A stretch of DNA of 62,604 nt from Candidatus Multiplicimicrobium inquinatum (GTDB lineage Bacteria > Omnitrophota > Omnitrophia > Omnitrophales > Aquincolibacteriaceae), in NCBI GenBank assembly GCA_002344825.1, contig DDUN01000034.1:15171-77774 (forward strand), written 5' to 3'. The notes beneath the pieces were generated by a model that was not told the origin of the DNA, did not search any database, and was given only the letters and a program-made list of their open reading frames with translations. The number at the start of each line of letters is the position of its first letter. Position 1 is the first letter of the stretch. Position numbers and translations under genes: made by a program. Shown in pieces: positions 11,903 to 62,210 of this stretch.

Positions 11903-12167
11903 TATCTTTTTTGTGCCAACACACTATATATGCGGTTAACTAAGTTTCTCTTTCTTAAAAAAATATAACCAATGGAATTATTAAAATAAATTAAAAATGC
12001 TAAAATGATAGTTTTTGATAGTTAATGCTATATATAAATCACGCTTTTGACCAAATCCAATCCCTCCCTTGAGCTTACCTACTCTTGACCCCCAATTTAC
12101 ATGTTTTGCCAAGACAGAGGCCGATACATGAGGCGAGAATGCCGCACTTAAAAAAAGGAGGATTCCT

Positions 12168-24100: not shown

Positions 24101-27013
24101 TTCAGGCAAAAGAATTTTTACACTTTCAGATTGTGCCAGCGGGGCTTCTTTACTTAAGGATTTTTTTTCACCTGCCTGAATTAAGGCTTCAGCCCACAAA
24201 AGAGCTCCATTTTGAAACCCCTCTTTAAAATCTGTCCCTGTTTTTTCGCCCAAAATGATTTTTATGCGCCCATAACGCAATAAAAAATCAGGAATTTCTG
24301 CCTGAAGCAGCTGCGCTTCTATTTCCCCCAAATTAAGCCGGCGGATCATTTCAGCGGACATCTCTTTCTCAGCGAAAGAAAGTGCCTGGCGCCAATTTTC
24401 TATTTCATCGGGAGAACTCGGAAGATCTATTTGCCGTCCGGTTTTGCCCCCCTCTTGAATCAGTCGATTGTGCTCTCCCAGCAAATCAAAAACAGAGAAA
24501 CTATTTTTTTTATCGTTAACACCCGCTGCGCTCAAAGCGGCCAACGAAAAAATTAAATTCTGCCACAAATCTCTTTTTTCAACTAAAACCTGAGAATCTA
24601 AAAAACGCGGCACAAAATTATCTTCAACTATCCGATTTGTGAACCGCTTGGCAACGCGTTCCGCAACCGCCGCGGCATGCACTCCCTGACTGTGAATGAG
24701 GCTCATCCCGCTCAAATATTCTTCCCAGTAAATAAGCATCATAGCCCGCACCGCCGCGGAGCGATCTTTCCAGTTAGTCGAAAAGCGGATAATTTCAACC
24801 CTGCCGTTTTCATACTTGAAATCAAGCGCCATTCCCGCGGAAGAAATTTTTTGAATTTCATCCGTATTTTTCAAACGCAAAGATTCGGCAAAAACCTCAA
24901 GACGAAGAGCAAGGGCCCGCTTAAATTTTTCGATCTCTTCCAATGCTTTAAAATCACCTGCCCAAGTTATGCGCGCCAAATCGTCATCGCCCCTTAATTC
25001 GGAGCGGGCGGGTAAACTTCTTTTCCAATTTGGCAAAGCCGCTTCAGGAGAGCTCCCGCCTCTTCGAATCCAAACTTCACGGCCGTCAAACCGCATCATT
25101 GACGCGCCTTTTCCTGCCCGCGTTTTAGCGTGAGGCCCCGCTGAGGTTAAAAGCGGTGTTTGCCCCTCTGTTCCCAAAAACCAGAAAACAGTATCTTGTC
25201 CATCGGGTGAAATCCAAACCCGCGACCGATCTGAAAACGAATCAAGTTCTCTTAGCGCGGCAATCGCTGTATCGGACAAAACAAACGCGGATGATGTTAA
25301 AATTTGCTCAGTTTCCACCGGACGGCCGGAAAGCGCCGCCGCGGTGCCGGAAAGCAGCGCATAAAGCGTTTCCGGAAAATTTTTCTCCATTCGCCGGGGA
25401 GTCTGCAGCTGCAATTGCGAATGCGATTTGAATTGCGCGTCTTCTAAGTTTTCAGGTCTAACCCATTCCAGCTTAGAAAGCTGAGAGCTCATTCGTTTTT
25501 CGTAAATGGTCTGATACTTTGAAAAATCAGTGGTTTTAATTTTGGGGCGCACCACTTCATAACTGATTCCTTGCTCACGCAAAACACGCAAAAGACCGGC
25601 CGTATGAAATCCACCGATTACAAGTGCGCCCACCTTCTGATTCTCTTTCTTCAGTTCGCTTATGAAGTTTTGAGCCAACGCTTCATCACGGCGCATCGCG
25701 ATATGATAAAAACTCATCGCGGCAGTCATAGTTTCCGACAAAACTTTTTTCTCATCCGAGCTAAATACAGTTTGATTCGCTTTCCCCAATGCTTCCGCTT
25801 TAAACTCATCGCGACGCGAAAGAAACTCCTCATAATCTGAGGCCGTTAAACTGAGCATCACCAAAGAACGGGAAATATCAAGATTCTCAAGACGCCGGAC
25901 AATTTCTTTCTGACCGCTTTCCGGGCAGGCTTTTTCGGTTAACTCTTTTTCAAGCCTTGCGACTTCATCGAAAAGCCCTGTTCCTACCCGGCGCATAAGA
26001 TAGGCCGCCTTCAAAGCCGAGACAGTAACCGGGTAGTTTTTAAGCGCCGTAGGGCTTTCCTTCCAAAGTAAAACTTCTGTTTTAAGATCCGCATCAAGCG
26101 ATTCTCCGCGTAAAACTTTCTCACCATATTCCGCCAGCTTGAGTCCAAGCGCCCCCTTTTTCTTTAAACCACGAATTTCACTTTCCATGATTTCCGGGTT
26201 TACTTGATCCGAAAGCTCATGCGCTTTGCGCCAAAAGTCAAACGCCGGATAACGCCCCGTCAAACGATTATCCAATCGCATACTTTGAAGATTCAAAAGA
26301 TGCTTTTGCCAGTCTCCGTTTTCATGAGCCTGACGGGCGTGTTTTCTGAAACGCAAATATTCCACCGGTAAAATCTTCAGAGCTTCTTCTTCCGTTCGGC
26401 TGCGTACGGTATTCAGTATCTTCAGCGCATCATCACGTTCGTTTACAACTTTGAGAAAAGCAACACGGTCCGATTCGTAAAGCCCCATATCTTCAACTCC
26501 GCGAAGCTTAAGCGAGGGATGCTTTGTCATCTGTAAATATTCAGGCCCGCCGATCACAGCTTCTTCAAGCAAAGTTTCGGCAAGCATCGTACGGGCCGCA
26601 CGGTTGGGAAACGCAGCAACCGCGGAATGCGGTAAATCACCTTTGGCTCCCTCAAGACCGACGAACTGAAGTCCTAAGCGGGAAACCCAAAAATCAATAA
26701 TCTTGGCGGCAGATTTCTGAGCTTCAGGAAGCGCGTGAGCGTCCTGAACAATCAGGGCGCGGAAAGGGGCCTTACCGGAAAAAGATTCAACCCGCTCCCC
26801 CATTTGCGAAGGAACCTGAGGGGGATTAACCCAATTCATATCATTCAAAAGGAGCAAATCAGGATGGTTCGAAAAAATAGGGTCAGCTTGTTTTACGGAC
26901 GCGGTTCTTGCAGAAAACCATTCCGCGGCGGGCATACTCCATACCGACTCCGCAAAAAAAACGGGCAGCAGCAATAAAGCGACAAACCTAAAAAATGTCT
27001 TCCCTTCCCCCAT
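18161..27013 (-). CDS. Giant multidomain membrane protein B (about 2,950 aa; the ORF stays open upstream to 27313)
   Basis: The track ORF is 18161..27313. The likely start is the ATG at 27013, which gives MGEGKTFFRFVALLLLPVFFAESVWS (signal-like) and is preceded by a G-rich stretch. The N-terminal module is paralogous to giant A: IVQDAH (His 26735..26737) and IGGFHT (His 25604..25606). A central TM block contains LNEWGHLIAS, which resembles a degenerate M50B-like HExxH. A class-II (Ntn) glutamine amidotransferase-like region begins at AACGNTS (Cys codon 23159..23161) and contains GAHPHGW and GHNGDFNDL. An SIS-like motif VVAIASSGSGQ lies near 20800..20840. Further TM blocks follow, and RSE-x-R motifs occur near the C-terminus. 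Confidence 0.85.
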   Translation of the reverse strand: MGEGKTFFRFVALLLLPVFFAESVWSMPAAEWFSARTASVKQADPIFSNHPDLLLLNDMNWVNPPQVPSQMGERVESFSGKAPFRALIVQDAHALPEAQKSAAKIIDFWVSRLGLQFVGLEGAKGDLPHSAVAAFPNRAARTMLAETLLEEAVIGGPEYLQMTKHPSLKLRGVEDMGLYESDRVAFLKVVNERDDALKILNTVRSRTEEEALKILPVEYLRFRKHARQAHENGDWQKHLLNLQSMRLDNRLTGRYPAFDFWRKAHELSDQVNPEIMESEIRGLKKKGALGLKLAEYGEKVLRGESLDADLKTEVLLWKESPTALKNYPVTVSALKAAYLMRRVGTGLFDEVARLEKELTEKACPESGQKEIVRRLENLDISRSLVMLSLTASDYEEFLSRRDEFKAEALGKANQTVFSSDEKKVLSETMTAAMSFYHIAMRRDEALAQNFISELKKENQKVGALVIGGFHTAGLLRVLREQGISYEVVRPKIKTTDFSKYQTIYEKRMSSQLSKLEWVRPENLEDAQFKSHSQLQLQTPRRMEKNFPETLYALLSGTAAALSGRPVETEQILTSSAFVLSDTAIAALRELDSFSDRSRVWISPDGQDTVFWFLGTEGQTPLLTSAGPHAKTRAGKGASMMRFDGREVWIRRGGSSPEAALPNWKRSLPARSELRGDDDLARITWAGDFKALEEIEKFKRALALRLEVFAESLRLKNTDEIQKISSAGMALDFKYENGRVEIIRFSTNWKDRSAAVRAMMLIYWEEYLSGMSLIHSQGVHAAAVAERVAKRFTNRIVEDNFVPRFLDSQVLVEKRDLWQNLIFSLAALSAAGVNDKKNSFSVFDLLGEHNRLIQEGGKTGRQIDLPSSPDEIENWRQALSFAEKEMSAEMIRRLNLGEIEAQLLQAEIPDFLLRYGRIKIILGEKTGTDFKEGFQNGALLWAEALIQAGEKKSLSKEAPLAQSESVKILLPEIVEEAPVLPHKTILTEAERGGSLEAGRWFEGLPDLAVIKTWGGDEGFEKLEEISKRLSKIQNLNPEGFGAGALEYWEAVVARMKHIRQGVPDTIPVELDEKVTDDGLNTAELDTEPVFSGKTSSWTFPVFEIVLTVAVVSFLSLPFLGMTLPVVLGLDLAAALSTSGLTAAAGALLLISLRAGYLAGMMLNEWGHLIASAFMGKVKTIKNFHNWTGNRNIFRLLAGLMPFTPMPSAYVQLDQSETKGVGAVRIAGFVLGVMAFAALVIFFGKTLLLFIPIMFFYTGVSGGILAKIAASISDIFNPPSEDWLAACGNTSIMGFVKKPADLDKYLARLKESIIVTEKRGKIAIGFFAIMEDLNGNQEIVHEKYYIDSRQTAADVFENQFKPLVLKRARAMKIPFYIHIGDHLRFPTAGAKKGDFSITAIENGAHPHGWVGQRESKVLTGTAKGFEYIVKKVYVVLGHNGDFNDLVKTFSERIRAFFSRRQKEALEIELDGKAYSNQQIAWVLKRIKGIYNPTTGDSPKLSGVQDLVYVQGRWEDTVQFAHYASVAPDLEYYFGGFIPKNDAEEAQAPNHALKPGEVKVLAAFLEQAFAQAGGMDKIRGLTDLADISDEDLGGLQEKILTQMNQASGSAQALFKQMGEKESAQFIETAVYAFLRHNLLNSWIYISKNVRGSAGVNAYSSLQPRTKISFSLGQNITLGFGKKNGMVQVGSNSEANAGRVDGYEFLLDLNGLGEVAEVTHDGETIGIKVYSLTLKDENGASGRFLTQDEIYARLRPAKPIEVSQNKDPAQLELNSIPAYLKVIRDEFKDPRDLRRPKMPPYTAEKHNFFVMLEIIKVILAGPIGRLIMRQSRVGIESGLGDDVFMKWAEVKMESFLADLGLVNATEEQKKSARQILVAAFRRDISNLIVNPDVVKSVLKPFALEIAGRHLNSSHNQESISQETIRNAVTEFSIKLLSEYDLSDYRDLAAANLLKSQEPLLNALKENRLDFQLIQSFLPQADEEPHHSYDAVFFGKEKNEQILKMIEKILKKVYPHFQTRVYDSNEIDREANAHLRDKEDASKLLPPGEMDVEGFKEQLSLTNPFVVAIASSGSGQHFNSSTGALMLARVIEELFVATADEHSQMSRAVGLERTLIIRTEWSPTELGMGAYASTRATFMELVSSAVRSLPSQIAGRPIFGSEFTDDDINFLEKEWDHFIDQTAPAVLGQKSDDENTHTNLVKAGKSFGRRISESTVSLAAAWVYIGLTVAGKVPSLFAVLHGLGGYVSAVLALSPVTLFLAIFTVIAITAWSIAVYQSTQRHAFSGKTRDYQKAAVWTFSLTFFAAQIFFLPGLGDALFYMFFAFPIFTLGYRWLVSLRDGNTRSFFDRGGMKFFSFVGVQEEVGKILETVFRKSFSQSYGINGAHAEATSADRMLDDQIGGNRAWINLGFLNKSGVPALADDLDALQMVFKQLITILSQVLFPYSYLFGLSLVGAHNVLIGDEGSKSEKASQQHITISTATKGDISKRRLAQQLFGLALDDFRLVLSGYVLIHSIAAYTARPVWYRPWSYIVKFNPNNTRSGAGTHTTASPRSADHLLPHLQVMDSILRPIRIEGLEPKRIEPPDYMHFPDPNRKGPPAQSAPRMKKNPRLDAMDRAIQEAQAALEKAQREFIQEKERQFAEVEKEVRFEGGRISAKPEIQYATAEFIRRELDSRGLNGMEPEIAEPYRQKLVSLSAALHSDENAYGEKIKPDEMADFFDRYRSQPKEFVKAVAYQLFSRSEVRQVSLAERSEVKGAGLLSGLQAQDAMRSGIKADQMRSEMRELMALPKRTLQEASSRILGNQISDSGVVIFERPYDPKWIRRFMAKMPAGVRIVMRAPAENVIDRALYSRELAAEIRRGIFSFEFSEASSESWMRNYLGAEFDPTNVIQVESPEKPSEADDEMLLLSAPMAAGHVLVLGQPQRLNLPGMRWIQISAWISQLYDVVKVTQTSA

Positions 27014-27532
27014 AAAGCCCCCCCAGGCTATAACTTCAGACGCGGTTAAATAAACTGCGCCGGATTTTTCATCACAGACTGAATATCCTGACTTGTTGCT
27101 CCGAACCGGCATGCCAACCCCAAAGCGTCTCTTGCTTGTTCGTAGCGTTCGTCCAGCAAGCACTTCCCAAACTGTTGAAGAGCCGTTGTTTTTAAAAAAG
27201 ATTTGAGTCCTAAAATCCGGTGAGAATGTTTCATCTTCATTAAGCACCTCCTTAGCTACAAACTTTTTAAAACAATTTACTTCCTGTTTAATAATAAGCA
27301 TAGACCATGCCAACTTTTAAAATTTCTATAAGTTGTTTTATAGTAATAATTTAAGATAAATAACAAAAATGGAATGGCACAAAAACTACAAGTATCCTTG
27401 GCTAAAATTTTCATTTTTGATGAAAAGAAGGAATGCAGGCAGGAGGTTAAAACCAAGAAATGCTAGAAAAAGATAGAAAGTGCTTTGCGGATTATGAATT
27501 CAATTTTGTGATGAGAACACGGAACAGGGCAA

Positions 27533-50159: not shown

Positions 50160-50203
50160 AAATCACCTCTTTGATAAGTAAAAAAACGAAGCTGTATTAT
50201 ACC

Positions 50204-50502
50204 CTAGGTCGTGTTGACATTGTTTATGCATTGGCGTTGTGAGCGCCATAGCCGACTTCTCCCAGGCGTGACGACGAAAGCTTGTCCGATGCGACAAGTC
50301 GAGGAGGAGCAACGCCGGAGAATCGGCTATGCCGCCACAACCCGATCTATTCCTACTTTGGGGGACAGGACGGGTTGCTACGCATCACTGCGTCTCTCGG
50401 GTCGTCGACGCACCGCAAAGGGTGCGCCTTCCTCCTCGTTCCTTGCGCTGCTTGCAAGCCGTTCCTGTCGCCAGCGCAGAAACAATATCAACACGACCTA
50501 AG
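50204..50502. ncRNA. Unclassified, highly structured GC-rich element (candidate ncRNA or cis-regulatory leader; strand uncertain, minus slightly favoured)
   Basis: A 20-bp closing helix pairs 50205..50224 with 50481..50500; its one mismatch becomes G-U on the minus strand. A helix of about 27 bp pairs 50236..50262 with 50317..50341, with two bulges. Nested hairpins occur at 50281..50298, 50380..50393, 50409..50426 and 50444..50478. GAGGAGG (50301..50307) is complementary to CCTCCTC (50431..50437). All three plus-strand frames are open only because of composition, and none looks like a protein. Confidence 0.4.
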
Positions 50503-51682
50503 ATAAGCTTTGTGATTCCGGCATGGTTAAACCGGACTCGGGCTTAATTTTGTTTTGATCAGACAAGTCTTCGACAGACACGGGGCTTGGAGCCGGAGAA
50601 ATGAAAATATTTTTTAGCTCCGGCGCCTCAACCAAATTTCCGTAATAAAAGATAACGCAACCACGGCTTCCTTCCCGCTCACAAGCTTCCCAAACCCCGT
50701 CAAATCCGGAGGGATTTTCCAAAAATTTATACGTCCCTACCGCCAAATAAACTTTGCCGAAATCAGCTGTTTTCTTTCTCGCGCCTTCCACGTATTTTTT
50801 AAATTCATCCAAGTCATCCGGATAATTCATCATCGTCACAAAGTCAACATACCCGAGATTAATCCATTCCGCCCAGTCCTGAAAAGCCTCTTCGCGGGCG
50901 CGTACATAAGGCGCGCAGCCTGTCGCTGAGACCTGAATCTGAGAATTCACGCTTCGCGCGCGAGCGACAGCAAGCCTGACAAGCTCCGTCACCTGATCAC
51001 GCTTCCACTTCCGCCAAACTTCCGTTTTTTCGTTGAAGCTTGTCTGCTCCGTCGCGCGTGCAAACCTCTTTAAATTTTCCATCGTATGCCCGTAAGCGGG
51101 CTCGGTGTCGGGGTAACGGATATAATCAAGCTGAATACCGTCCAAATCGGAATAAGTTTTCACGATTTCGACCACGAGCTTCACAAGCTCGGAGCGAACA
51201 CGCAAATCACCCGGCTCAAGCCAATACTGATTATCGATCAAATAATCCGTGATTTCTTTTTTATCTTTTTTGTTGCGGGTCAAAATTTCACGCCCATATC
51301 TTTTCAAAATCGGCGCGTCCGCGTTGGAGCCCAAACTCATCATATTGATCCAGGCATGCACTTCTAAATCCGCTGCGTGCGCCTCACGTATCAAAAGCGC
51401 AAAAGGATCCTCGCCGACTTTTTCAAACGCGCTCTGATAAGGCGCGGAATCACCCAGGGCTGAGGGAAACCATGCTTTGCCCTCACGGTAAATCTGAACA
51501 AAAAGTTTTTTGATCCCCGCCTTTTTAGCAAAGGCAATCATTTCAAGCATGGCATCACGGCTGGTTAGAACAGGCGGGTTTTCAATCACCGAAACAAAAA
51601 GACCGCGCTCGGGAACGTCCGCGAATAAAGAAAGCGGAGTGAGACAGAGAGTCAAAAGAATAAGAAGGCGCTGAAAAATCAT
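50498..51682 (-). CDS. GHL10-family (YngK-like) putative glycoside hydrolase, secreted
   Basis: The track ORF runs to 51988. The likely start is the ATG at 51682, which gives the signal peptide MIFQRLLILLTLCLTPLSLFA. The product has TIM-barrel GHL10 patterns (LFVQIY, EVHAWINMM, GIQLDYIRYPD). Confidence 0.75.
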   Translation of the reverse strand: MIFQRLLILLTLCLTPLSLFADVPERGLFVSVIENPPVLTSRDAMLEMIAFAKKAGIKKLFVQIYREGKAWFPSALGDSAPYQSAFEKVGEDPFALLIREAHAADLEVHAWINMMSLGSNADAPILKRYGREILTRNKKDKKEITDYLIDNQYWLEPGDLRVRSELVKLVVEIVKTYSDLDGIQLDYIRYPDTEPAYGHTMENLKRFARATEQTSFNEKTEVWRKWKRDQVTELVRLAVARARSVNSQIQVSATGCAPYVRAREEAFQDWAEWINLGYVDFVTMMNYPDDLDEFKKYVEGARKKTADFGKVYLAVGTYKFLENPSGFDGVWEACEREGSRGCVIFYYGNLVEAPELKNIFISPAPSPVSVEDLSDQNKIKPESGLTMPESQSLS

Positions 51683-51758
51683 GCCAAATGGTACTGGTTT
51701 CAATCGCTTAAAGTCAATCACACTCGAAAAAACAGAAAACACCCGATCAACAAAAAAA

Positions 51759-53480
51759 TTAAAATCCAACGCGAGCGGAAAGATGAATCTGATTACGGTT
51801 TTTGTCAGAGGATGGGTCTCCAAGGGGAATGCCGTAATCAAACTGAATATTGAAATCCGGTGAAACATAAAACCGCGCGCCAAATCCCGTGCCGGCCAGA
51901 GTTTTGGTGGTTTCAGATCCGGCATTCTGCCGTTTATAATTGAAAACTTGTCCCCCTTCGATAAAACCAACCAGCGAAAAAGCATCACGCATTTTTTTAT
52001 TTTTCATTCCCGGTACATTCCAGCTATGCGGAATAAAATAAGGCGGTACGCGTAATTCGGTCGAAAAACTGTACCCACTGTCGCCCGAACTGTCATTTTC
52101 AGGATACCCACGAATGGAAAACATACCGCCCATATTCATCTGCTCTAATGAATTTAACGGCGAAGGGCTGTATTGTCCCGATGCCTGCATCACCAAAATA
52201 GATTGATAAGGTAAGCGCTGTAAACGCGCGACATTCGCGGTTCCGTAAACAAATTGCCCGCCGGAATCAAGCCGGCTCGCGGCGCCGTCATATTTCGACG
52301 AACCGCCCATAAAATGCGGAATCCCGACATGTAAATCAGCCGCGCCGAATGTCTGCCCCCATTTATCATAATAGCCCGCGCGCGGTCCGATCACAACGGC
52401 CCGTGAACGGTCAAAGGACAACTGCTGATCGCTGATTAAAGTGCGCGAATCTTTTACTTCAAACCGCAAAGCTCCGTCCAAATAAAAACGATCGGTGCGG
52501 ATAAAATTCTGAGTTACGCCGGGAATCACACTCCAGGATTTTCCCTGAACGTCAAACTCACGTAGACTTTTTTGCAGACGGCTTTGTGCCACCGATGCCG
52601 CCAAACTGAAAATGGTTCCGGTCCTCAAAATAGGAAATTCATAATAAGCCGCACTTCCGACAATAGCCCCCTGTTCTGCCAGAGTAAAATTTGCCTGAAG
52701 ACTGTCGCCAAAGCCCAGCAAATTATTGTGCGTTAAATGCGCCATATGCCGCGCACGATGCGTCAGTTTCGTACCGCGCAAATTAAATTCATAAGAAAGA
52801 TGCACCGGAAATTTGTCTTTTGCCTTCAGCGTAATATTTGTTGTACCTGTTTCTTCGCCGGGCTCCAGATAAGCTTTTACTGCGCGGTCGGGTTCGAGAT
52901 TAATACTGCGCAAAGCGCCTTCAAGCTCAGACATTTCAAAAAAATCACCCGCTGCCAGAGCGATCCCGCCCAAATAAACCTTCTTTTTGAACCAACGATT
53001 ACCTTCAACATCCACTTTTCCCACGCGCCCTTCCATGACTTGGATAGTCACAATCCCGTCTTTCACTTTCTGCGGCGGAATATAAGCTTTTGTGGTCGTG
53101 TATCCATAGTGACGGTAATACGCTGTGACCAAATCAGCCAGACGCTCCAAATCACCGAAAGAATTTTTTTTATCTTCAAAGGGCTGGGCTAAAGCATGAA
53201 CCTCTTGTTCGGGAATCAAAGTAGATCCTTCGATCACAATTTTTTTAACGAGAAAAACAGGTCCTTCGTCTTTTTTAGGCTTTTCCTCTTTTTCTTCCTC
53301 TTCAATGACAGGTTCCTGAGAAGTTTTAAGAAAACGATCTTCGTTCTGTTTTAAAAGGTCAGTTTGGGTTACAAGATCGCGAGTTGCACGCTCGGAATCA
53401 ATTTGCTGGGAAAAAACAGAGGTTGCACTTACTAAAACAATTCCCGTAATCAAACAGAAAAATTTTATCGTTCTAAACAT
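51759..53480 (-). CDS. TpsB (ShlB/FhaC-family) two-partner secretion outer-membrane transporter
   Basis: The track ORF extends to 53528. The ATG at 53480 follows AAGGAAA and gives the signal peptide MFRTIKFFCLITGIVLVSATSVFS. POTRA-like repeats are present (VKKIVIEGSTL..., GIVTIQVMEGRVGKVDVEG). The C-terminal barrel ends ...HLSARVGF. Confidence 0.9.
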   Translation of the reverse strand: MFRTIKFFCLITGIVLVSATSVFSQQIDSERATRDLVTQTDLLKQNEDRFLKTSQEPVIEEEEKEEKPKKDEGPVFLVKKIVIEGSTLIPEQEVHALAQPFEDKKNSFGDLERLADLVTAYYRHYGYTTTKAYIPPQKVKDGIVTIQVMEGRVGKVDVEGNRWFKKKVYLGGIALAAGDFFEMSELEGALRSINLEPDRAVKAYLEPGEETGTTNITLKAKDKFPVHLSYEFNLRGTKLTHRARHMAHLTHNNLLGFGDSLQANFTLAEQGAIVGSAAYYEFPILRTGTIFSLAASVAQSRLQKSLREFDVQGKSWSVIPGVTQNFIRTDRFYLDGALRFEVKDSRTLISDQQLSFDRSRAVVIGPRAGYYDKWGQTFGAADLHVGIPHFMGGSSKYDGAASRLDSGGQFVYGTANVARLQRLPYQSILVMQASGQYSPSPLNSLEQMNMGGMFSIRGYPENDSSGDSGYSFSTELRVPPYFIPHSWNVPGMKNKKMRDAFSLVGFIEGGQVFNYKRQNAGSETTKTLAGTGFGARFYVSPDFNIQFDYGIPLGDPSSDKNRNQIHLSARVGF

Positions 53481-53588
53481 GCTGATTTCCTTATTAAATC
53501 CGCAAACGAGTGTGGCGAAGCTTGTCAAATTATATGGATCGAGCCGAATGGCGCTATCAAAATCTTATGAAATATCTGCGGCAATTTA

Positions 53589-56500
53589 TTAAGCACCTAT
53601 CGGTAAAGAACCGCCGCTAGTAAAAGAAATATCACCGGTACATTCACCGGAACCTGCGCAAGTAACCTGGGTTGCAAAAGTATGCCCGCTGACGCCGTTA
53701 CCGTAAATCGGACCTTCTGCGCCTTCAGCTTGCGAAATTCCATTTTCATCTGTGTTTTTATTTTGCTCTGAAGATGGTTCGTCACTGCTACTGCTATTTC
53801 CACTTTCGTCTGTTGAATGAGAGCTTGGGCTTGAGTTTGATTTGGATCCTGAACCGGAACTATTTCCTTGATCCTTTACAGTAGAAGCATTTCCATAACC
53901 GCTCATTGTGCTAATAAATTGATTGCCAATAATTTCTTGGGGTCTGTTATCGGCAATCTCATTCAAAATAACCTCAAAACCATTATCAGAAGAAGGTTCT
54001 GTCAAGAATACCGGCAAAGGAATTCTGACTTCATCCTGCCAGAGAAAATAAGGCAAACTCGCCTCATCCGCATCAGGAACTTCATCAATTTTCCAAATCG
54101 TGTCAAAATCCCAACCCGCGTCGGTAAAATTTTCTTTTACGATCATTTCTGAAGTTGCTAATCCTGTCAGTCCGGCGATACCCAGCACACCTGTTTCATG
54201 AACATTATCAAAAAAACTATTCACATAAGTGCCCAGCAAATCTCCAGAAAAAGAAGCTGATACTGCGCCGGACGAATAAGCATTGGTAACACTTCCACCC
54301 GTGTTCGTTCCTACAAAACCACCGAAAGTGCTGGCACCCGTTCCTGTGACTCCACCCGTTGCATAGGCATTTACAATCGTGCCTGTATTTTTACCAACAA
54401 AGCCGCCGACAGAACTCAAACCCGTGACAAGGCTATTTGAAAACGCCCGCAAAATATCTCCGGCGTTCTGCCCGATAAATCCGCCGACAAAATTTCCCGT
54501 GGCTGTTACCTCTCCGAGAGAATACGATTCGGATATTTCACCCGTATCATTATATCCGGCAAAGCCGCCGACATAGTTTCTTCCTTCAACATCACGATTG
54601 GAATAAGAACCTGCAATATCACCCGACTCATTGTAGCCGATAAAACCGCCCACATAATCGCGGCCTTCGATCGGGTCATTGACTTCAGATTGATTGGGAA
54701 GGCCTTCATTTAAAATGACCGTACGCGCGCTGGAATCTGAAATAGTGCCGCTTTCGTTATAGCCGATGAAACCGCCGACATAATCACCGGTCGCGGTCAC
54801 GTTATTATGGATGTCAAAACCGGAAACCGTGGTGCTGTTAACGTAACCCACCAAACCGCCGGCATAATTCACTCCCGTGACGGTTCCAAGCTCCGGCAAA
54901 TCTCCATCAAAAGAAATTGAGCCGCCTATACTAATACCAATCAGTCCGCCCGCGTAATTACCGTCAGCCTCAACATCACCCGTCGCGTAAGAATCGATAA
55001 TATTGCCGGCTTGATGTCCTCCCATCAACCCGCCGACAGCGTTCGTGCCGCTGATATTTCCGGTTGCGTAAGAGTCGGATATATTGCCGGCATGGCTGCG
55101 GCCGATAAGACCGCCGACATATTCAAGACCCGTTACATCGCCTTCCGCGTAAGAATCTTCAATCGTCCCATTCACATGACGGCCGATAAGACCGCCGACA
55201 TAATAAGCGCCTTCATTATTAACATCGCCGGTCGCGTAGACATCAGAAATGTTGCCGCTATTGTTGTAACCGATTAACCCGCCCGCGTAATCATCAACCG
55301 CTTCAACATTGCCTGTGGCGTGAGAATCCGAAACAGCGCCGCTGTTGTTATAACCCAATAAACCGCCCGCATAGCCGCCGGTCGCCGTCACGGTTTTATC
55401 CGTGAAATAACCTGAAATATCCGCGCTGTCGTTGTAGCCAATGAGACCACCGACATAATTACGGCCGGACACTTCACCGGCTGTCGATAATTCGCCGCTG
55501 AATTCAACACTGTCCGCGCCGTTGCGTCCAATAAGACCGCCGACATAATCGCGACCCGTCACATCGCCGGTGGCATAACTGTCCGTCAACGGACTATTCT
55601 CGCTTAAACCGATAAGACCCCCAACGTAGTCGTTACCTGTCACCTCACCGGTTGCGTAAGAATTCGAAACGATGCCGCTCGCTTTATAACCTGTGAGACC
55701 ACCGACATAATCAACATTCTCCGCATCAACATCGCCGGTCGCGTAAGAATCCGTAATCGAGCCGCTATTGTTGTAACCCAAAAGACCGCCAGCATAATCA
55801 TCACTGCCTGTCGCCGTCACGTCGCCGGTGGCATAAGACCTTAAAATCGCGCCCGAAGTATGGGAGCCAACGAGTCCGCCGACATTACCCAAACCGGTGA
55901 CATCACGCGTTGAATAAGAATCCGTGATATCGCCCGATTGGTTTAACCCGATGAAGCCGCCAATATAATTGGCTCCGGCTACGCTGATGGCGGTTCCCGT
56001 CGTATAAGAATTCGAGATATCGCCGCTGTCGTTTTGGCCGATGAAACCGCCGGTCTGCGCGCCCGTCGCGGTAATGTCATTATTGGTATGGAAACCGGAA
56101 ATATTGGAGCTGTTGTTATAACCGATAAAACCGCCGACATAATTCGTTCCTTCCACGTCGCCGAAATCGGAAAGCTCGCCTTCAAAGCTAATCGTGCCGC
56201 TATTGTTGTAGCCGATGAAACCGCCCGCGTAGCTGGAGCTCGCGGTCACATCACCGGTGGAATACGAATCCGTAATAGCGCCGGCGTTATGATATCCGAT
56301 AAAACCGCCGACACGATCGGCGCCGGAAACATCACCGGTCGCGTAAGAATCCGAGGTCTCGCCTCCGTTGCTGCGCCCGATGAGACCGCCCGCAATCGAA
56401 CTGCTCGCTGTGACATCGCCGGTCGCGTAGGATCCGGAAACATCGCCCGATTCATTGATGCCGATAAGGCCGCCTATAGTTCCGCCGCCGCTCACATTGC

Positions 56501-59500
56501 GCGCGGAATAAGAATCCGTAACAGACCCCGTATTATTCGACCCGATTAAACCGCCGGTATTTCCGTTCGTGCCCGTAATCGCGGTCCCCGTGGTATAAGA
56601 ATTCGAAACTTGGCCGCTATTGTTATAGCCGAGCAGGCCGCCGACATGATCGCCGGTCGCGGTAATCGCGGCGTTTGTATGAAAACCCGAAATATTCGCG
56701 CTGTCGTTGTAACCGATCATTCCGCCGATATAGGTCGCGCCGCTCACATCACCATAATTCTGCCATACTAATTCGCTATCATATGTAATGGTGCCGTGAT
56801 TATTGCGGCCGATAAAACCGCCGGCATAATTTACGGCTGTCACATCGCCCGTCGAATAAGAATCCGTAATATTTCCGTTGTCATGAAAGCCCATGAACCC
56901 GCCGACATACTCATCCCCCGAAACATCGCGTGTCGAATAAGAGTCTGTGATATTGCCGCTAACGTGATAACCGATGAGCCCGCCGACATAATCGCCGTCG
57001 CCTTCAATTTCAGTTCCGGTTGAGTAAGAATTGAGAATATTTGCGTTGGTGTTATACCCGATCAAACCGCCGGCATAACTGCCGGTAGCAATCACATCAT
57101 TGTTGGTGAAAAATCCATCCAGATTGGAGTTTGCATTTCGTCCGATGAAACCGCCGACATACTCTCCACCGCCGACACTGCCAAAATCGGGCAAGCCGCC
57201 TTCCATACTCTCAGGGTCAAATGTAATGATGCCGCCGTTGTTATAGCCGATAAAACCACCGACATAACTTTCCCGATAGACAAACTCTTCTTCATCTTCA
57301 TCATAATAACCCGCTTTAACATCACCGGTGCTGTACGAGTCGGTAATATTTCCGGCCTGATGTTCACCAATAAATCCGCCGACATAACTTCCATCCGCTG
57401 TCACATTGCCTGTCGAATACGAATCCGTAATATTGCCGTTGCTATTGGTTCCAATAAAACCGCCCACCCAATAATCGGTTGCGATCACATTTCCGGTCGC
57501 GTAGGAATCTGAAATATCTCCTCCATTTTGATAGCCGATGAAACCGCCGACCCAACTGTCTCCGTCAATATCACCTGTCGCATAAGAATTCATAATCGTG
57601 CCGCTATCATGCTCTCCAATAAATCCGCCGATATAATCTCTGCCGGTAGCATCCGCCAATGAATGGGAGTTTGAAATAGTCCCGCTCGAATGACGGCCGG
57701 TAAAACCACCGACATAATAATCGCCTTCAACCGCGCCGCCGGCTCCTACATAAGAATTGGTAATATTTCCTCCGGAGTGATACCCAATAAAACCACCGGC
57801 ATAATCTTCATCCGTAGAGACAGAAACATTCGCTCCAACAAAAGAATTAGAAATATCGCCGCTTGCGTGATAGCCAATCAAGCCGCCAACATACTCATCG
57901 TCCGCTTGCACCACAGCACTAGCTCCGACAGACGATCCGGAAATACCGCCGACATTGTGCCCAACCAAGCCGCCGGCCATGTCGCCATCCGCCGTAGTAT
58001 CCCAAGCTCCGTCATAATAAGAGTCATATTCACGCGAATCATCATTCGCGGTTACTTCAGAACTTGCACCCACAGAAGAATCAGAGATTGTGCCGCCTTC
58101 TTTATAACCCACCAAACCACCGGTTCTCAAACCGCCTGTCACGGTTCCCTGAAAAGAAGAGTTTGAAATGGAGCTATTTTCATCCATGCGGCCGATCATG
58201 CCGCCCGTGCGAATACCTCCGGTAATATTGAAATTACTTAAAACTAAATTGGTAATCGCTGAACCGATGGCCATCCCAATAAAACCGGAATTAATGTAAT
58301 TTTCATTATCCGAAATCAAGCCCGACAAAATTTCACTGCCGCCGTCAAAAGCATTCACGCGCAAAGTCGGAATCATAAAATAATGTGTTGTTGATAAATC
58401 AATTGCGTCCGTAATGAGAAAATCAAGGTTTTCACTTGTGCCGGTATTCACAAACGGCAAAATATTTTTTAAATCCTGCAAACTCGTAATTAAATAATTG
58501 CCATCCCCGTCCGTCCCGAGATAGTCATCAATATCAAGCGCAGCGCGACCGCCGCCAATCCAATCATCGAATTGCCCTTCATAAATTCCAAACGCGTTGA
58601 CTCGATTTTCAACTCCGTTCCCCGCATCACCATCACTGTCAATCAAGACATCATTAATGTTGTAATAAGAATTAGTAATGCTGTCATTGTCCGTGTAAAA
58701 ACTTCCGACAAATCCATAGGCATTCCCCTCATTCGCGCTGACATCTCCAAGGCTGTAAGAACCGCCAATAGTGCCGTCATTGTCGCCCACAAATCCGCCG
58801 ACATTAAACCGTCCACTTACGCTCAGCTCCGTGTGAGAATCCTGAATATCGCCGTCATTGTTCCCAACCAACCCGCCGACATATTTTCCGCCGCTAACAC
58901 TCCCTGAGATTAAATGCAAATCAGTTACATCGCTGACATTGTGACTAATAAAACCAACATTCACAAAGTCATCCATATCTAAAGCCAGGTTTGAAATATT
59001 GAATCCGCCGCCGTCGAACTCCGCGACATTTAAATAAGGAATTGTAAAATTAAGTTCATCCATATCGATATTGGCTGTAATCGCGAAAGATAAAGCGCTC
59101 GAGCTGCCGGCAAAAGCCAAAAAGTCTTTTAGATTGGTTAAAGTACCAATTTCATAGTAGCCGCCGTTTAAAGTCAAATAATCCGCCACATCAAGCGCGA
59201 CATAGCTTCCATCAACCCAATCCTGGTATTGCGCGTCATAAATTCCGAAACGAGTAACACGGCTTTCTCCGTTGATATCAACTTCATCGATGTTGTAATA
59301 AGAATTTGTTACTGTGCCGCCGCTGTTGCCGATAAGACCGCCCCCATAGTTGTAGTCATACCGATTACTGCCGTCGATGGTGACATTGCCGGATGAGTAA
59401 GAGTTTTGAACCGTTCCGTTATTGCCTCCCGCTAAACCGCCGGCATAAACGTCCGCACGAACAGTTCCGGTTGCATAAGAACCTGAAATCGTTCCGCTGT

Positions 59501-62210
59501 TCCAACCAACCAATCCGCCGGCATATTCGCCGTCATCGTAATCATCACCATCCTGAGTATTGCGATCCGCCTCGACCGTTGCCGAAGAATAAGAATTTGA
59601 AATAATTGCATCTGAGCTTGTGTAACCAACGAGCCCCCCAACATAATCATCACCATACGCGCTGCCCGTAGAATAAGATGCTGAAACAGTTCCATGCACC
59701 TGTCCTCCAATCAAGCCGCCAACATAATCTGATCCTAAAACAGCTCCTTCAGCATAAGAGTTCGTAATATTCGTATTCGTAGCATGATAACCAACCAGTC
59801 CGCCGACATAAAATGATTCATCGTCATTGTCGTTATAACCGGTTACATCTCCCGTGGCATGCGAACCGGAAATAGCACTTGAGTTATGTCCGACTAACCC
59901 TCCAAGATAATTCGCGCTTGAATTACTTTGAATCGATACATTTCCATCCGCGTAGACATTCGTCAATGCGCTGCCTGATTCATTCTGACCAATCAAACCG
60001 CCGACCTGGTGGCGGCCGCGAACATTTCCGGTAGCATGAGAGTCTTCAATGGCGCTGCCCGACGCGTTATATCCAACCAGCCCGCCAACATTATCAGCAT
60101 CGAAACCATTTTCATTGCTCACATTACCGGTGGCATAAACGTCCGTGAGCGCGCTGTAATTGGTACCAATAAGACCGCCGGTACGACTCCGGCCCGTGAC
60201 AGTTCCCGTGGCATAAACTAAGGTGAGCGCATTGCCAGTCGCATTTTCGCCGATAAGGCCTCCGGTGTGGCTGCGTCCCGTCACATTTCCGGTTGCATAC
60301 ACATCGGTCACCGTCGAACTGTCTTCATTGCGGCCGATAAGACCGCCTGTGTAATCCTCGCCGGAAACAGTCCCGGTAGCATACGATCCGTCGATCGTGT
60401 CATAATTTCTTCCAACGAGACCGCCGGTGAAATACCCTCCGGTAACAGAGGCCGTGGAATAAGAATCTTCAATCGTTCCGTCATTGCGCCCGACGAGACC
60501 GCCGGTATGGTAACCGCCGCTCACGCTGCCGGTCACATAAGAATTGGAAATTGAACCTTCGTTGAAGCCGGTAACACCGCCCGTGTACTGTCCGCCGCTG
60601 ATCGAAACCGTCGTCAACCGGACATCATCAATCACACCCGCGGATCCCACGGAGGCGAATAACCCTATATATTCAGTACCCGAACGATTGATAGTCAGAT
60701 TTGAAATTGTCTTGCCATTACCGTCGAAACTTCCTATAAATTGGCTCGCAGAGCTTCCAATTGGATCAAAATTAAAATCAGAACCATTGATGTTGTTGGC
60801 CAGCCTGTAATATGCGCCCATGCTGGAAATATTCTGTAGCTGGGAAATGTCATGAATGATGTAAGGCGCGCCCATGGTCCCGAGCCCAACTGTCTTCACA
60901 AAAAGAACCGCGAGTTTTGTGAGGAAAGTTGCCACACTGATATCATTGACGGTGGTGGAAGAAGTAAATGTCGGCGTAGAACCATTCTGACTTCTTTCCA
61001 GCGTTAAAGTGCCGATCCCAGACAAAATCCCTACCGTGGAATCTTCCGAAGCACGCAAAGTTAAATCATGCGCATTGCCGGTAATTGTCGCTGTGGAATC
61101 CATGAGAAAAGCGCCGGAACCATTCTGATCACTGTCCGCCCAAAAAGTCGTATCACCTGTCATATTCAGCGTCACGCCCGCGTTAATCACTATGTTGATC
61201 TCATCGCTGATGGCTCCGGACACATCTGTGTCATCAGTATAGGTAATCGCGTTATCAAGATTATTAATCGAAGATTGATCGACTTCAAAAATACCACCCA
61301 CATTAAAACTTGCGCCTTCTTCATGCAGAAAATTGGTCCTGAGCGTTCCTTTGGAATCAATACCCCCGTCGGCCACAAACTCAACCTGACCATCACGCTC
61401 AACCGCGCGGCCAGCCTGCACAACACCTTCATTATTCACAATGCGGTTTAAAGTTTTATTGAGCAACTTTGCCGTCATTTCAACTTTTCCGCCGTCCGCG
61501 CGTATCTCTCCGGTATTCGTAATTTGATCTACCGTATTTCCATCTGCATCTTTCAATTCATGCTGAAGTCCCTCATCCACGACAAGGTTGATTAGCCCCT
61601 GCTGATCGAAGCTGACAGAAATTTTTTCTCCGGAACCTAAAGCAACACTGCCGAGATAAGCCGTGATTTTTCCGGTGTTCTGAATTTTATCGGCAAGAAA
61701 AATAATATATCCGCCATCCGCGGCTTGAATATCCGCCTGATTAAGAATCTCGGCGGCATTCGCGCCCTGCATTTTTTCAAATGAAAACTGATTCGTAAGA
61801 AATAATTCGTTTTGAATATTCAATGTGGAAGCAATCAAAGAGGCAACGTTGATATTCGCGGCCTGCGCGATGTAAACACCCTGCGTGTTCACCAAAACGA
61901 TTTTGCCTTCAGCCAGAAGAGAGCCGATCCAGTTTGTCTGACTGCCTGTCATATCGCGCAAAAGTGCGTCATTGTTTCCGACGAAGCGAACGGTTTCATG
62001 CGCGAGAATGCTGGTGTCGCCTTCAAAAACCGCGCGGCTATTCATCGTGACAGTAGTGATATCTCCCTCTTTTGAAATAACCGCGTCGCCTTCCGTAACC
62101 TGAACATCGAAAGCAAAGGCAGCATGGGGAAAAATATTCCAGAAAATAAAAATAAATGCGGTCAGAAAAGCAGCGGCGCGTTTAAACCATGTGTTTGAAG
62201 TCATCATCAT
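53589..62210 (-). CDS. TpsA-type giant exoprotein (2,873 aa) with an N-terminal TPS domain and a GLUG-motif repeat array
   Basis: Signal-like N-terminus, followed by a haemagglutination-activity/TPS-like region (VRFVGNN..., KIVLVNTQGVYI in place of NPNG). More than 80 degenerate repeats of the type Y(V/A)GG(L/F)IG.N..G.I..SY(A/S)TG.V.G follow. The C-terminal roughly 200 aa are Ser/Asn/Glu-rich low complexity. Confidence 0.9.
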   Translation of the reverse strand: MMMTSNTWFKRAAAFLTAFIFIFWNIFPHAAFAFDVQVTEGDAVISKEGDITTVTMNSRAVFEGDTSILAHETVRFVGNNDALLRDMTGSQTNWIGSLLAEGKIVLVNTQGVYIAQAANINVASLIASTLNIQNELFLTNQFSFEKMQGANAAEILNQADIQAADGGYIIFLADKIQNTGKITAYLGSVALGSGEKISVSFDQQGLINLVVDEGLQHELKDADGNTVDQITNTGEIRADGGKVEMTAKLLNKTLNRIVNNEGVVQAGRAVERDGQVEFVADGGIDSKGTLRTNFLHEEGASFNVGGIFEVDQSSINNLDNAITYTDDTDVSGAISDEINIVINAGVTLNMTGDTTFWADSDQNGSGAFLMDSTATITGNAHDLTLRASEDSTVGILSGIGTLTLERSQNGSTPTFTSSTTVNDISVATFLTKLAVLFVKTVGLGTMGAPYIIHDISQLQNISSMGAYYRLANNINGSDFNFDPIGSSASQFIGSFDGNGKTISNLTINRSGTEYIGLFASVGSAGVIDDVRLTTVSISGGQYTGGVTGFNEGSISNSYVTGSVSGGYHTGGLVGRNDGTIEDSYSTASVTGGYFTGGLVGRNYDTIDGSYATGTVSGEDYTGGLIGRNEDSSTVTDVYATGNVTGRSHTGGLIGENATGNALTLVYATGTVTGRSRTGGLIGTNYSALTDVYATGNVSNENGFDADNVGGLVGYNASGSAIEDSHATGNVRGRHQVGGLIGQNESGSALTNVYADGNVSIQSNSSANYLGGLVGHNSSAISGSHATGDVTGYNDNDDESFYVGGLVGYHATNTNITNSYAEGAVLGSDYVGGLIGGQVHGTVSASYSTGSAYGDDYVGGLVGYTSSDAIISNSYSSATVEADRNTQDGDDYDDGEYAGGLVGWNSGTISGSYATGTVRADVYAGGLAGGNNGTVQNSYSSGNVTIDGSNRYDYNYGGGLIGNSGGTVTNSYYNIDEVDINGESRVTRFGIYDAQYQDWVDGSYVALDVADYLTLNGGYYEIGTLTNLKDFLAFAGSSSALSFAITANIDMDELNFTIPYLNVAEFDGGGFNISNLALDMDDFVNVGFISHNVSDVTDLHLISGSVSGGKYVGGLVGNNDGDIQDSHTELSVSGRFNVGGFVGDNDGTIGGSYSLGDVSANEGNAYGFVGSFYTDNDSITNSYYNINDVLIDSDGDAGNGVENRVNAFGIYEGQFDDWIGGGRAALDIDDYLGTDGDGNYLITSLQDLKNILPFVNTGTSENLDFLITDAIDLSTTHYFMIPTLRVNAFDGGSEILSGLISDNENYINSGFIGMAIGSAITNLVLSNFNITGGIRTGGMIGRMDENSSISNSSFQGTVTGGLRTGGLVGYKEGGTISDSSVGASSEVTANDDSREYDSYYDGAWDTTADGDMAGGLVGHNVGGISGSSVGASAVVQADDEYVGGLIGYHASGDISNSFVGANVSVSTDEDYAGGFIGYHSGGNITNSYVGAGGAVEGDYYVGGFTGRHSSGTISNSHSLADATGRDYIGGFIGEHDSGTIMNSYATGDIDGDSWVGGFIGYQNGGDISDSYATGNVIATDYWVGGFIGTNSNGNITDSYSTGNVTADGSYVGGFIGEHQAGNITDSYSTGDVKAGYYDEDEEEFVYRESYVGGFIGYNNGGIITFDPESMEGGLPDFGSVGGGEYVGGFIGRNANSNLDGFFTNNDVIATGSYAGGLIGYNTNANILNSYSTGTEIEGDGDYVGGLIGYHVSGNITDSYSTRDVSGDEYVGGFMGFHDNGNITDSYSTGDVTAVNYAGGFIGRNNHGTITYDSELVWQNYGDVSGATYIGGMIGYNDSANISGFHTNAAITATGDHVGGLLGYNNSGQVSNSYTTGTAITGTNGNTGGLIGSNNTGSVTDSYSARNVSGGGTIGGLIGINESGDVSGSYATGDVTASSSIAGGLIGRSNGGETSDSYATGDVSGADRVGGFIGYHNAGAITDSYSTGDVTASSSYAGGFIGYNNSGTISFEGELSDFGDVEGTNYVGGFIGYNNSSNISGFHTNNDITATGAQTGGFIGQNDSGDISNSYTTGTAISVAGANYIGGFIGLNQSGDITDSYSTRDVTGLGNVGGLVGSHTSGAILRSYATGDVTATGSDDYAGGLLGYNNSGSITDSYATGDVDAENVDYVGGLTGYKASGIVSNSYATGEVTGNDYVGGLIGLSENSPLTDSYATGDVTGRDYVGGLIGRNGADSVEFSGELSTAGEVSGRNYVGGLIGYNDSADISGYFTDKTVTATGGYAGGLLGYNNSGAVSDSHATGNVEAVDDYAGGLIGYNNSGNISDVYATGDVNNEGAYYVGGLIGRHVNGTIEDSYAEGDVTGLEYVGGLIGRSHAGNISDSYATGNISGTNAVGGLMGGHQAGNIIDSYATGDVEADGNYAGGLIGISIGGSISFDGDLPELGTVTGVNYAGGLVGYVNSTTVSGFDIHNNVTATGDYVGGFIGYNESGTISDSSARTVILNEGLPNQSEVNDPIEGRDYVGGFIGYNESGDIAGSYSNRDVEGRNYVGGFAGYNDTGEISESYSLGEVTATGNFVGGFIGQNAGDILRAFSNSLVTGLSSVGGFVGKNTGTIVNAYATGGVTGTGASTFGGFVGTNTGGSVTNAYSSGAVSASFSGDLLGTYVNSFFDNVHETGVLGIAGLTGLATSEMIVKENFTDAGWDFDTIWKIDEVPDADEASLPYFLWQDEVRIPLPVFLTEPSSDNGFEVILNEIADNRPQEIIGNQFISTMSGYGNASTVKDQGNSSGSGSKSNSSPSSHSTDESGNSSSSDEPSSEQNKNTDENGISQAEGAEGPIYGNGVSGHTFATQVTCAGSGECTGDISFTSGGSLPIGA
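54290..60800 (-). repeat. Degenerate tandem coding repeats (GLUG-motif units, about 20-25 codons each)
   Basis: CCGCCGACATAAT-like and GTAACC/GATAAAACCGCC-like strings recur on the plus strand throughout this interval. The protein-level periodicity is visible in the track translation. Confidence 0.85.

Follow-up and report, generated by a model that had tools for sequence, protein, structure and literature searches.

Insertion sequences (ISs) of the IS427 group, within the IS5 family, are 832-865 bp long, make 2-bp direct repeats and carry two overlapping open reading frames (ORFs) (PMC3281130, Table 2). Ends resembling those of this group bound the element considered here, which occupies positions 50205-50500 of a 62,604-nt stretch of DNA from Candidatus Multiplicimicrobium inquinatum (Omnitrophota), contig DDUN01000034.1; the whole of this stretch was analysed and is called the window below. 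The element is GC-rich and non-coding, a terminal helix of 30 bp closes both its ends, and it lies between a GHL10-family gene and lemA. With a probability of about 0.92, it is a non-autonomous miniature transposable element with inverted repeats (MITE) of Omnitrophota with IS5-family, IS427-group-like ends, which inserted into the GHL10 stop codon and whose fold is under selection. Its likeness to the IS427-group ISs, and to MITEs with their ends, lies in the termini, GGTTCTGTTGACAT(TT), and in the flanking TA with C before and G or A after; the autonomous relatives with such ends are 807-841 bp long, with a DUF4096 and a DDE part in two frames, as compared with the published 832-865 bp. The element differs from these ISs in being without a transposase, in a core of 230 nt that is unlike them, and in two changed positions per terminus.

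Other small bacterial repeats offer further points of comparison. The Correia elements of Neisseria (CREE/NEMIS) duplicate TA and, like the present element, are small and non-autonomous, lie at gene borders and have inverted ends that form a long duplex in the transcript. They differ in being about 100-155 bp long and Neisseria-specific, with an IHF site and promoter-forming ends, and they have no sequence relationship to the element. Correia transcripts are reportedly cut by RNase III at the paired ends, and both Correia and ERIC elements have been reported as structures for transcript processing or stability (PMC10969869, PMC2649163). Repeats of the ERIC, YPAL and BOX type are likewise dispersed and give stably folding transcripts, and at gene 3' ends they can alter the mRNA level (PMC10969869, PMC2229807). 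These repeats are, however, shorter and mostly simple stem-loops, whereas the element is branched and G+C-rich and has invariant internal loops. Bacterial MITEs have been described as typically AT-rich (PMC10969869). The HEARO/IscB omega RNAs and the IS605-orfB RNAs of Rfam resemble the element in their size of about 300 nt, in occurring in several copies per genome and in a conserved secondary structure. However, the element matches no Rfam model and has no adjacent nuclease or transposase gene, and it has both inverted repeats at its ends and a duplicated target, neither of which those RNAs possess.

Insertion into the GHL10 stop codon

The element measures 294 bp from GG to CC, plus the duplicated TA, and has a G+C content of 57.5% versus 46.4% for the window (in a sliding profile, 0.565-0.60 within the element and 0.365-0.47 alongside). 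An initial annotation, made from the sequence of the window, had pointed to a GC-rich element of about 300 nt without a convincing coding frame, and this description holds. Three overlapping plus-strand ORFs are present (50211..50501, 50282..50506 and 50329..50547), but their frames are not conserved, because copies of the element differ by indels of 1, 2 and 17 nt. A protein search with the longest of these ORFs (96 residues) for copies mis-called as proteins gave one match only. The 20-bp end helix of the same annotation was also recovered: positions 50205-50225 are complementary to 50480-50500, a match with a chance expectation of 0, and the inverted repeat reaches 37 nt at 84% (50200-50236 with 50469-50505). 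The window contains no second copy of the element and no other long inverted repeat of its kind.

The clearest evidence for insertion comes from relatives in which the site is empty. Contigs that were reached through a LemA protein search and contig look-ups encode LemA proteins 89-93% identical to that of the window, in the same gene order (GHL10-lemA-TPM-TPM-FeoA-FeoB), and there only 39-45 nt separate GHL10 from lemA and the element is absent. A genome scan with LemA returned only distant relatives (best 66% identity) and no empty site; the closest LemA to that of the window belongs to Ca. Taenariivivens baikalensis. On the minus strand, the window reads ...agcttatct TA[GGTCGTG...CACGACC]TA gggtataatacagcttcg, and the empty sites read ...agcttgtct TAA ggtataatacggcttcg (locus L307) and ...gacttgtct TAG agtataatacagcttcg (L309); downstream of the stop, TA gggtataat in the window stands against TAA ggtataat and TAG agtataat. 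At the point where the window has TA-element-TA, three empty sites (L307, L308 and L309) have only one TA. Subtraction of the 294 nt and of one TA restores the exact length of the empty site, and therefore the insertion was precise and was accompanied by a 2-bp TA duplication. The left copy of the target TA is at 50205..50206 and the right copy at 50499..50500. A further empty site (L305) is in the same assembly as an element-bearing locus (L004).

The insertion, which went precisely into the TA of the GHL10 stop codon, is harmless to the GHL10 protein. Because the element begins with G, the gene (ORF 50498..51988, minus strand) keeps a TAG stop at 50498..50500, composed of the duplicated TA and the first G of the element. 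These are the last three bases of the element, and the overlap of its 3' arm with the stop codon of the upstream minus-strand gene had been correctly noted before. A neighbouring gene stops on the terminal TAG of the element at five independent loci (the window, L003, L009/L018, L010 and L012), and at three further loci the ORF continues a few codons into the element. The window thus illustrates clearly how an element that duplicates TA and has G as its first base can occupy a stop codon without harm to the gene. At L004 (5991-6554, minus strand), the upstream ORF extends 65 nt into the element; its C-terminus (…LLGRVDIVSALATGTACKQHKE) would, if the gene is real, be encoded by the MITE and have replaced the original tail.

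In a set of 14 copies of the element, TA is preceded by a pyrimidine in 11 and followed by a purine in every one, which makes the target Y-TA-R, a pattern that covers the stop codons TAA and TAG. A 4-bp YTAR duplication, on the model of IS5 proper, was rejected, as matching 4-mers are missing in most copies. The lemA gene of the window has diverged by 16.4% from that of the empty-site lineage L307 and by 7.3% (over the first 300 nt) from that of a lineage sharing the insertion, and the insertion can be dated between the two splits.

At its opposite end, the element is separated from the lemA start by 45 nt. This spacer (50160..50204, minus strand; GGGTATAATACAGCTTCGTTTTTTTACTTATCAAAGAGGTGATTT), which lies outside the element, is almost invariant in relatives whose lemA is 16-18% different, and it holds a perfect TATAAT, a run of seven T and a strong Shine-Dalgarno sequence (GGGTATAAT..T7..AAAGAGGTGATTT). 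The MITE landed directly upstream of the TATAAT, and a -35 element of a lemA promoter, if there is one, has therefore been moved away by about 300 bp. A promoter-like site on the plus strand at 50171-50200, within this AT-rich spacer, was set aside as locus-specific and probably due to chance.

A dispersed family with IS5-type termini

Exact-pattern scans with the terminal 21-mer and a conserved internal motif identified at least 14 related copies, 72-93% identical, in metagenome-assembled genomes (MAGs) of Omnitrophota and in metagenome contigs, with two copies apiece in MAG SRP135725_co2_92 and MAG GFS_12873. Identity among the copies begins and ends exactly at TAGG...CCTA, the flanks are unrelated, and several different flanks occur inside single sequencing runs. 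The ends are conserved in all family members, and TA borders 10 of 14 left ends and 12 of 14 right ends. The copies lie in both orientations beside unrelated genes (for a photolyase, ComEC, a glycosyltransferase, a TPR protein and others); apart from the spurious ORFs of the element itself, no gene recurs near them. Members range from 138 to 298 nt and include deletion derivatives of 237, 205, 199 and 138 nt, some of them without one or the other arm of the fold described below. Full-length copies are 52-58% G+C irrespective of the G+C content of the host. The MITE named among the possibilities by the initial annotation, which had proposed a search for multiple copies as the check, is therefore borne out by dispersed copies, an empty site with TA duplication and IS5-type termini.

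The first two pattern matches outside Omnitrophota (L001 and L002) were discarded as chance matches inside coding sequence. Viral contigs gave chance matches only (none for one pattern, and 20 and 63 single matches for two others), and a pattern scan of a plasmid collection gave no match. Full-text literature searches for MITEs in Omnitrophota returned nothing on the subject, and the family is apparently documented here for the first time. A second type of structured element, found at L013 (5050-5308, minus strand) and L017 (1509-1573), has in common with the window's family the outer terminus (TAGGCTCTGC...GCAGAGCCTA) and the whole of one arm, arm A, but nothing else: it has a terminal helix of its own (GAAACAATAAGTGATCCATTTG / CAAATGGATCACTTATTGTTTC) and a different second half. 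At L017, the end of the type 2 copy is abutted by a type 1 copy. At L005, a tRNA gene (2742-2812, minus strand; Rfam, 50.7 bits) lies about 135 nt from a copy of the element.

The termini of the element, GGTYSTGTTGACAT, equal those of 807-841-bp, IS427-group-like ISs of the IS5 family in many phyla, and the terminus consensus GGTTCTGTTGACAT marks both ends of ISs of 807-841 bp in which an IS5-family transposase is encoded. In the window, the left terminal inverted repeat (GGTCGTGTTGACATTG, of IS5/IS427-group type) is at 50207..50222 and matches the right one at 50483-50498. A scan with the 16-mer TAGGTTCTGTTGACAT found at least 120 loci, those listed being in Poribacteria, Chloroflexota, Methylococcales, Acidobacteriota, Latescibacterota, Rickettsiales, cyanobacteria and others. 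Among the matches listed, a second, inverted terminus was nearby in 35 cases, at 807-841 bp in 13 and at 104-556 bp in 22, and long and short elements alike are flanked by C-TA...TA-G. The long ISs (for example, L148 1675-2481, L175 3249-4066 and L199 3979-4813) encode in two frames a DUF4096 N-terminal part (PF13340) and a DDE_Tnp_1 catalytic part (PF01609), and the NCBIfam model NF033580, 'IS5 family transposase', scores 111-166 bits on the two frames of L148 and on L175. The short elements are exemplified by L183 6645-6989 and L220 3124-3384. Together, these matches tie the Omnitrophota MITE family to a very widespread IS5/IS427-type terminus. A resemblance of the terminus to that of IS6/IS26, which had been considered first, was dropped once the ISs with these ends proved to encode IS5-family transposases, and an IS630/mariner origin was discarded because the autonomous relatives belong to the IS5 family.

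Two observations concern the wider distribution of these ends. The IS with termini GGTTCTGTTGACATTT and C-TA-G flanks (L122-L241) occurs in many phyla, one Bathyarchaeia contig included, and has given rise to many short elements (104-556 bp) that are unrelated to one another, some of which have a core that folds strongly (z about -7 for L220). In addition, a viral contig (L253 13414-13526, IMGVR_UViG_3300003817_000010) contains a 113-bp element with ends GGTCCTGTTGACATTT...AAATGTCAACACGACC and flanks C-TA...TA-G, whose terminus is the GGTC(C/G)TG variant, as in the window's subfamily.

An IS427-group-like DDE transposase, supplied in trans, would thus move the element to Y-TA-R sites with a 2-bp TA duplication, and one such event would have brought the present copy into the GHL10 stop, at its TA, where it now separates GHL10 from lemA. 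The 230-nt core shows no detectable similarity to these ISs or to other short elements with the same ends, and the element is therefore not a simple internal-deletion derivative; the core does not derive from the IS. No transposase was found within the 8-kb neighbourhoods of the copies. A cognate IS would be expected to measure about 0.8 kb and to have GGTCGTGTTGACAT or GGTTCTGTTGACAT at its ends.

Covariation and constraint in the core

The whole element folds far more stably than its shuffles (z = -8.2 on the plus strand and -8.75 on the minus strand), but most of this energy comes from the terminal helix, and the core, with 35 nt trimmed from each end, gives z of about -2.2. The extensive base pairing of the element, one of the claims of the initial annotation, is supported mainly by covariation and not by energy. 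Over 14 copies, 94.8% of the cells of the proposed structure are standard pairs, and 38 of 99 pairs have changed on both sides. Shuffles yielded 21.8 +/- 2.6 such double-changed pairs (0 of 500 reach 38) and slid partners 4-18; with the first 7 sequences, compensatory changes were already present in 30 of 98 pairs.

The core, which is conserved to an unusual degree, is modelled as a three-way junction, in which the terminal helix, P1, carries two long arms and a small hairpin. P1 pairs 50206..50235 with 50470..50499 (28 pairs), its 3' arm including the right terminal inverted repeat, and 17 of the 28 pairs have changes on both sides; its inner half covaries though it is not IS-like in sequence. 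Arm A (50236..50341) has a base helix, 50236-50261 with 50318-50341, which is the long internal helix seen earlier, and 9 of its 21 pairs are double-changed, including some in its distal part. The tip hairpin of arm A (50280-50286 with 50293-50299) has double changes in 5 of 7 pairs, for example from CTTGTC/GACAAG to CGTAGT/ACTACG, and occurs in four different paired sequences. Between the arms is a small variable junction hairpin (50342..50363), which in alignments of short variants is CCC-TTCG-GGG. Arm B (50364..50469) has a base helix (50364-50378 with 50454-50469) with 3 double-changed pairs and the rest invariant, a tip hairpin (50409-50414 with 50421-50426) with 2 double-changed pairs, and a conserved pyrimidine tract (50427-50444). 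The further hairpins of the initial annotation are present, among them those at 50280-50299 and 50409-50426, the second with the GCAAAG loop noted before, a sequence that varies among copies. A doubtful middle helix of arm B (50382-50388 with 50445-50451) is only 89% paired. Covariation thus extends beyond the ends to which a transposase would bind, and the pattern of sequence change argues that the core fold has been kept by selection.

In contrast to the helices, the junction and the internal loops hardly vary among copies (GCGTTGTGAGCGCCATG, GGCGTGACGACGA, CGAGGAGGARCAACG, CATGCCGCCACAACCC, GGGACAG, GTCGTCGACGCACC, CCTTCCTCCTCGTTCCTTG and CTGCTTGCAA). In arm A, the near-invariant internal loop consists of GGCGTGACGACGA at 50265-50277 and CGAGGAGGAGCAACG at 50300-50314. 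Each of the two large internal loops is complementary to the other, through CGACGA/TCGTCG (50272-50277 with 50402-50407) and through CGAGGAGGA/TCCTCCTCG, suggesting a candidate pseudoknot or tertiary pairing of CGAGGAGGA at 50300..50308 with TCCTCCTCG at 50430-50438. The long-range GAGGAGG/CCTCCTC pairing proposed initially is part of this perfect 9-nt complement, of which both sides are conserved. That proposal stands as far as complementarity goes, but it gains nothing from compensatory change: in this complement, one-sided changes (G-U) are the only ones, and the loops vary too little for covariation to appear.

A copy at the orthologous filled site (L311, also in run X3) provides a measure of constraint after insertion. 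The two elements differ at 18 bases and one gap in 296 nt (6.1%), whereas between the same two loci 17 of 100 third positions in the lemA codons and 52 of 330 positions in the GHL10 tail have changed; the promoter- and ribosome-binding-site-like spacer upstream of lemA has 0 differences in 45. Of the 18 changes in the element, 12 fall in the 98 positions that the model leaves unpaired, one restores a pair of the terminal helix, and four strike the middle helix of arm B, which is doubtful for this reason. Such slow, loop-biased divergence argues that the inserted copy is under purifying selection on its fold.

What the fold may do

Several observations weigh against parts of the interpretation of the element as a MITE with IS427-group-like ends and a selected fold, and those bearing on a role of that fold in RNA are neutral or negative. 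None of the matches listed (at least 120 loci) was from Omnitrophota, and no IS5-family IS with these termini was found there among them, although MAGs lose repeats, and because of this the cognate transposase is inferred from other phyla. The window's subfamily differs from the ISs at two positions per terminus, GGTCGTG versus GGTTCTG, a change that is concerted at both ends. Gene conversion among copies could also slow the divergence of orthologs, and in the ortholog arm B has a broken middle helix. With respect to RNA, the folding energy of the core alone is unremarkable, no conserved promoter or intrinsic terminator was found in the element, and there is no strand signal in its helix mismatches (12 G-U versus 14 A-C, counted in helices common to the folds of both strands). 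Finally, the metatranscriptome contigs with copies are of low depth and unstranded, and they break at the repeat edges or enter the flanks.

What the fold does is a matter of tentative ranking. The leading candidate, put forward with limited confidence from the present analysis, is that it acts in cis as RNA after read-through from neighbouring genes. In a read-through transcript, the 30-bp terminal duplex and the arms could then be a structure for processing, stability or insulation, in either orientation, much as has been described for the Correia and ERIC repeats; both orientations of the element fold equally well. Metatranscriptome assemblies of several studies contain related copies; over the element the RNA contigs have no more depth than over the flanks, and no splice-like joints were found in RNA or DNA runs. 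If the fold does act in RNA, the elements would offer ready-made modules, independent of orientation, that rewire the transcripts of operons, and this in a phylum for which almost nothing is known of how genes are regulated.

Second in this approximate order, and rather improbable, is a role for the fold at the level of DNA, in which a hairpin or cruciform, formed in single-stranded or supercoiled DNA, would draw the two ends towards each other or attract a host factor or the transposase, so that elements that keep the fold out-replicate those that do not. Such a role would fit pairs that are almost only Watson-Crick, G-U being no commoner than A-C on either strand, and it would fit the covariation of the inner half of P1, outside the IS-type repeat. 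Foldable cores are likewise found in other short elements that share these ends (L183, L210 and L220; z -3.7 to -7.4). However, selection for mobility leaves unexplained the slow, loop-biased divergence of a copy that is fixed in two lineages, and an arrangement of invariant internal loops between stems that covary suggests rather a design for RNA or for recognition by protein. In addition, internal hairpins are not known to be required by DDE cut-and-paste elements of the IS5 family.

An unlikely explanation, placed next, is that the core has no function at present, its fold being the relic of a captured sequence and its apparent constraint the product of concerted evolution or of the youth of the copies. 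The core energy, only about 2 standard deviations below shuffles, is consistent with this idea, as are helix mismatches of all kinds, as expected for the neutral decay of single copies, and the decay of the arm B middle helix in the ortholog. But the 38 double-changed pairs far exceed both the shuffled and the slid controls, the tip of arm A has taken four different paired sequences, and orthologs differ by 6.1% versus 17% at third positions, with two thirds of the changes in the unpaired third.

Still less probable is the more elaborate proposal that the core is a complex-folded RNA, its two invariant loops paired, which was captured by IS5-type ends and is spreading as a 'mobile ncRNA gene' (ncRNA, non-coding RNA); such a gene would act in trans or as a host-exapted, orientation-independent RNA module. 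Its strictly trans-acting form, a structured RNA gene serving as a protein-binding scaffold or ribozyme-like molecule, with the invariant loops as a pseudoknotted core, is the least probable of the four possibilities ranked for the fold. Stems that covary, loops that vary, and junctions and internal loops that do not, together with the complementarity of the two internal loops, speak for such a gene. The arm A module also recurs in the type 2 element (L013 5050-5308) with a different terminal helix and second arm, and the copies are G+C-rich whatever the host and appear in metatranscriptome assemblies of several studies. Nevertheless, the element belongs to no Rfam family, has no conserved promoter or terminator and is found in mixed orientation to its neighbours; the RNA contigs run into the flanks and are no deeper than these; the pseudoknot pairs are without compensatory change; and derivatives without either arm persist. 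A search of the window with Rfam 15 (4227 models), the check suggested at the outset, gave 0 matches at the gathering score and only chance-level ones at E<=10. Copies from six other loci had no match at E<=1, and ARAGORN reported nothing within the element. Of the structured ncRNA that was first proposed, the structure stands, its fold being kept by compensatory changes, and the putative RNA gene has shown no Rfam match, no strand signal and no discrete transcript in the metatranscriptome contigs.

A leader or riboswitch that regulates lemA specifically and in cis, or a fixed single-copy ncRNA gene, can be dismissed as barely credible: the element is strongly structured and, on the transcribed strand, precedes lemA by 45 nt, its place directly 5' of lemA having been noted by the initial annotation, but the site is empty in relatives with LemA 89-93% identical, which run the operon without it, and other copies lie beside varied, unrelated genes in both orientations, with neither position nor orientation constant. 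A false lead is thereby removed, as the element is no new riboswitch and no RNA gene of a housekeeping kind. Mobility had been offered as a refutation of the RNA interpretation, but for this element a mobile origin and a maintained structure both hold. The point of interest is precisely this combination, a non-autonomous transposon in which compensatory changes maintain a branched, G+C-rich fold and which remains constrained after fixation at a locus.

Other features of the window were also noticed. Within the GHL10-family ORF, ARAGORN reports a 94-nt 'tRNA-Pyl' with anticodon CTA (51511-51604, minus strand), which is probably a false positive, as Rfam gives no tRNA in the window at the gathering score. 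Three giant ORFs, all on the minus strand, are found at 2-11923 (at least 3974 residues, running off the start of the window), 18161-27313 (3050 residues) and 53589-62210 (2873 residues). The last of these contains many repeats of the GG(L/F)(I/V)G type and lies downstream of a gene for a ShlB/FhaC-type transporter (51759-53528), a layout like that of a two-partner secretion system.

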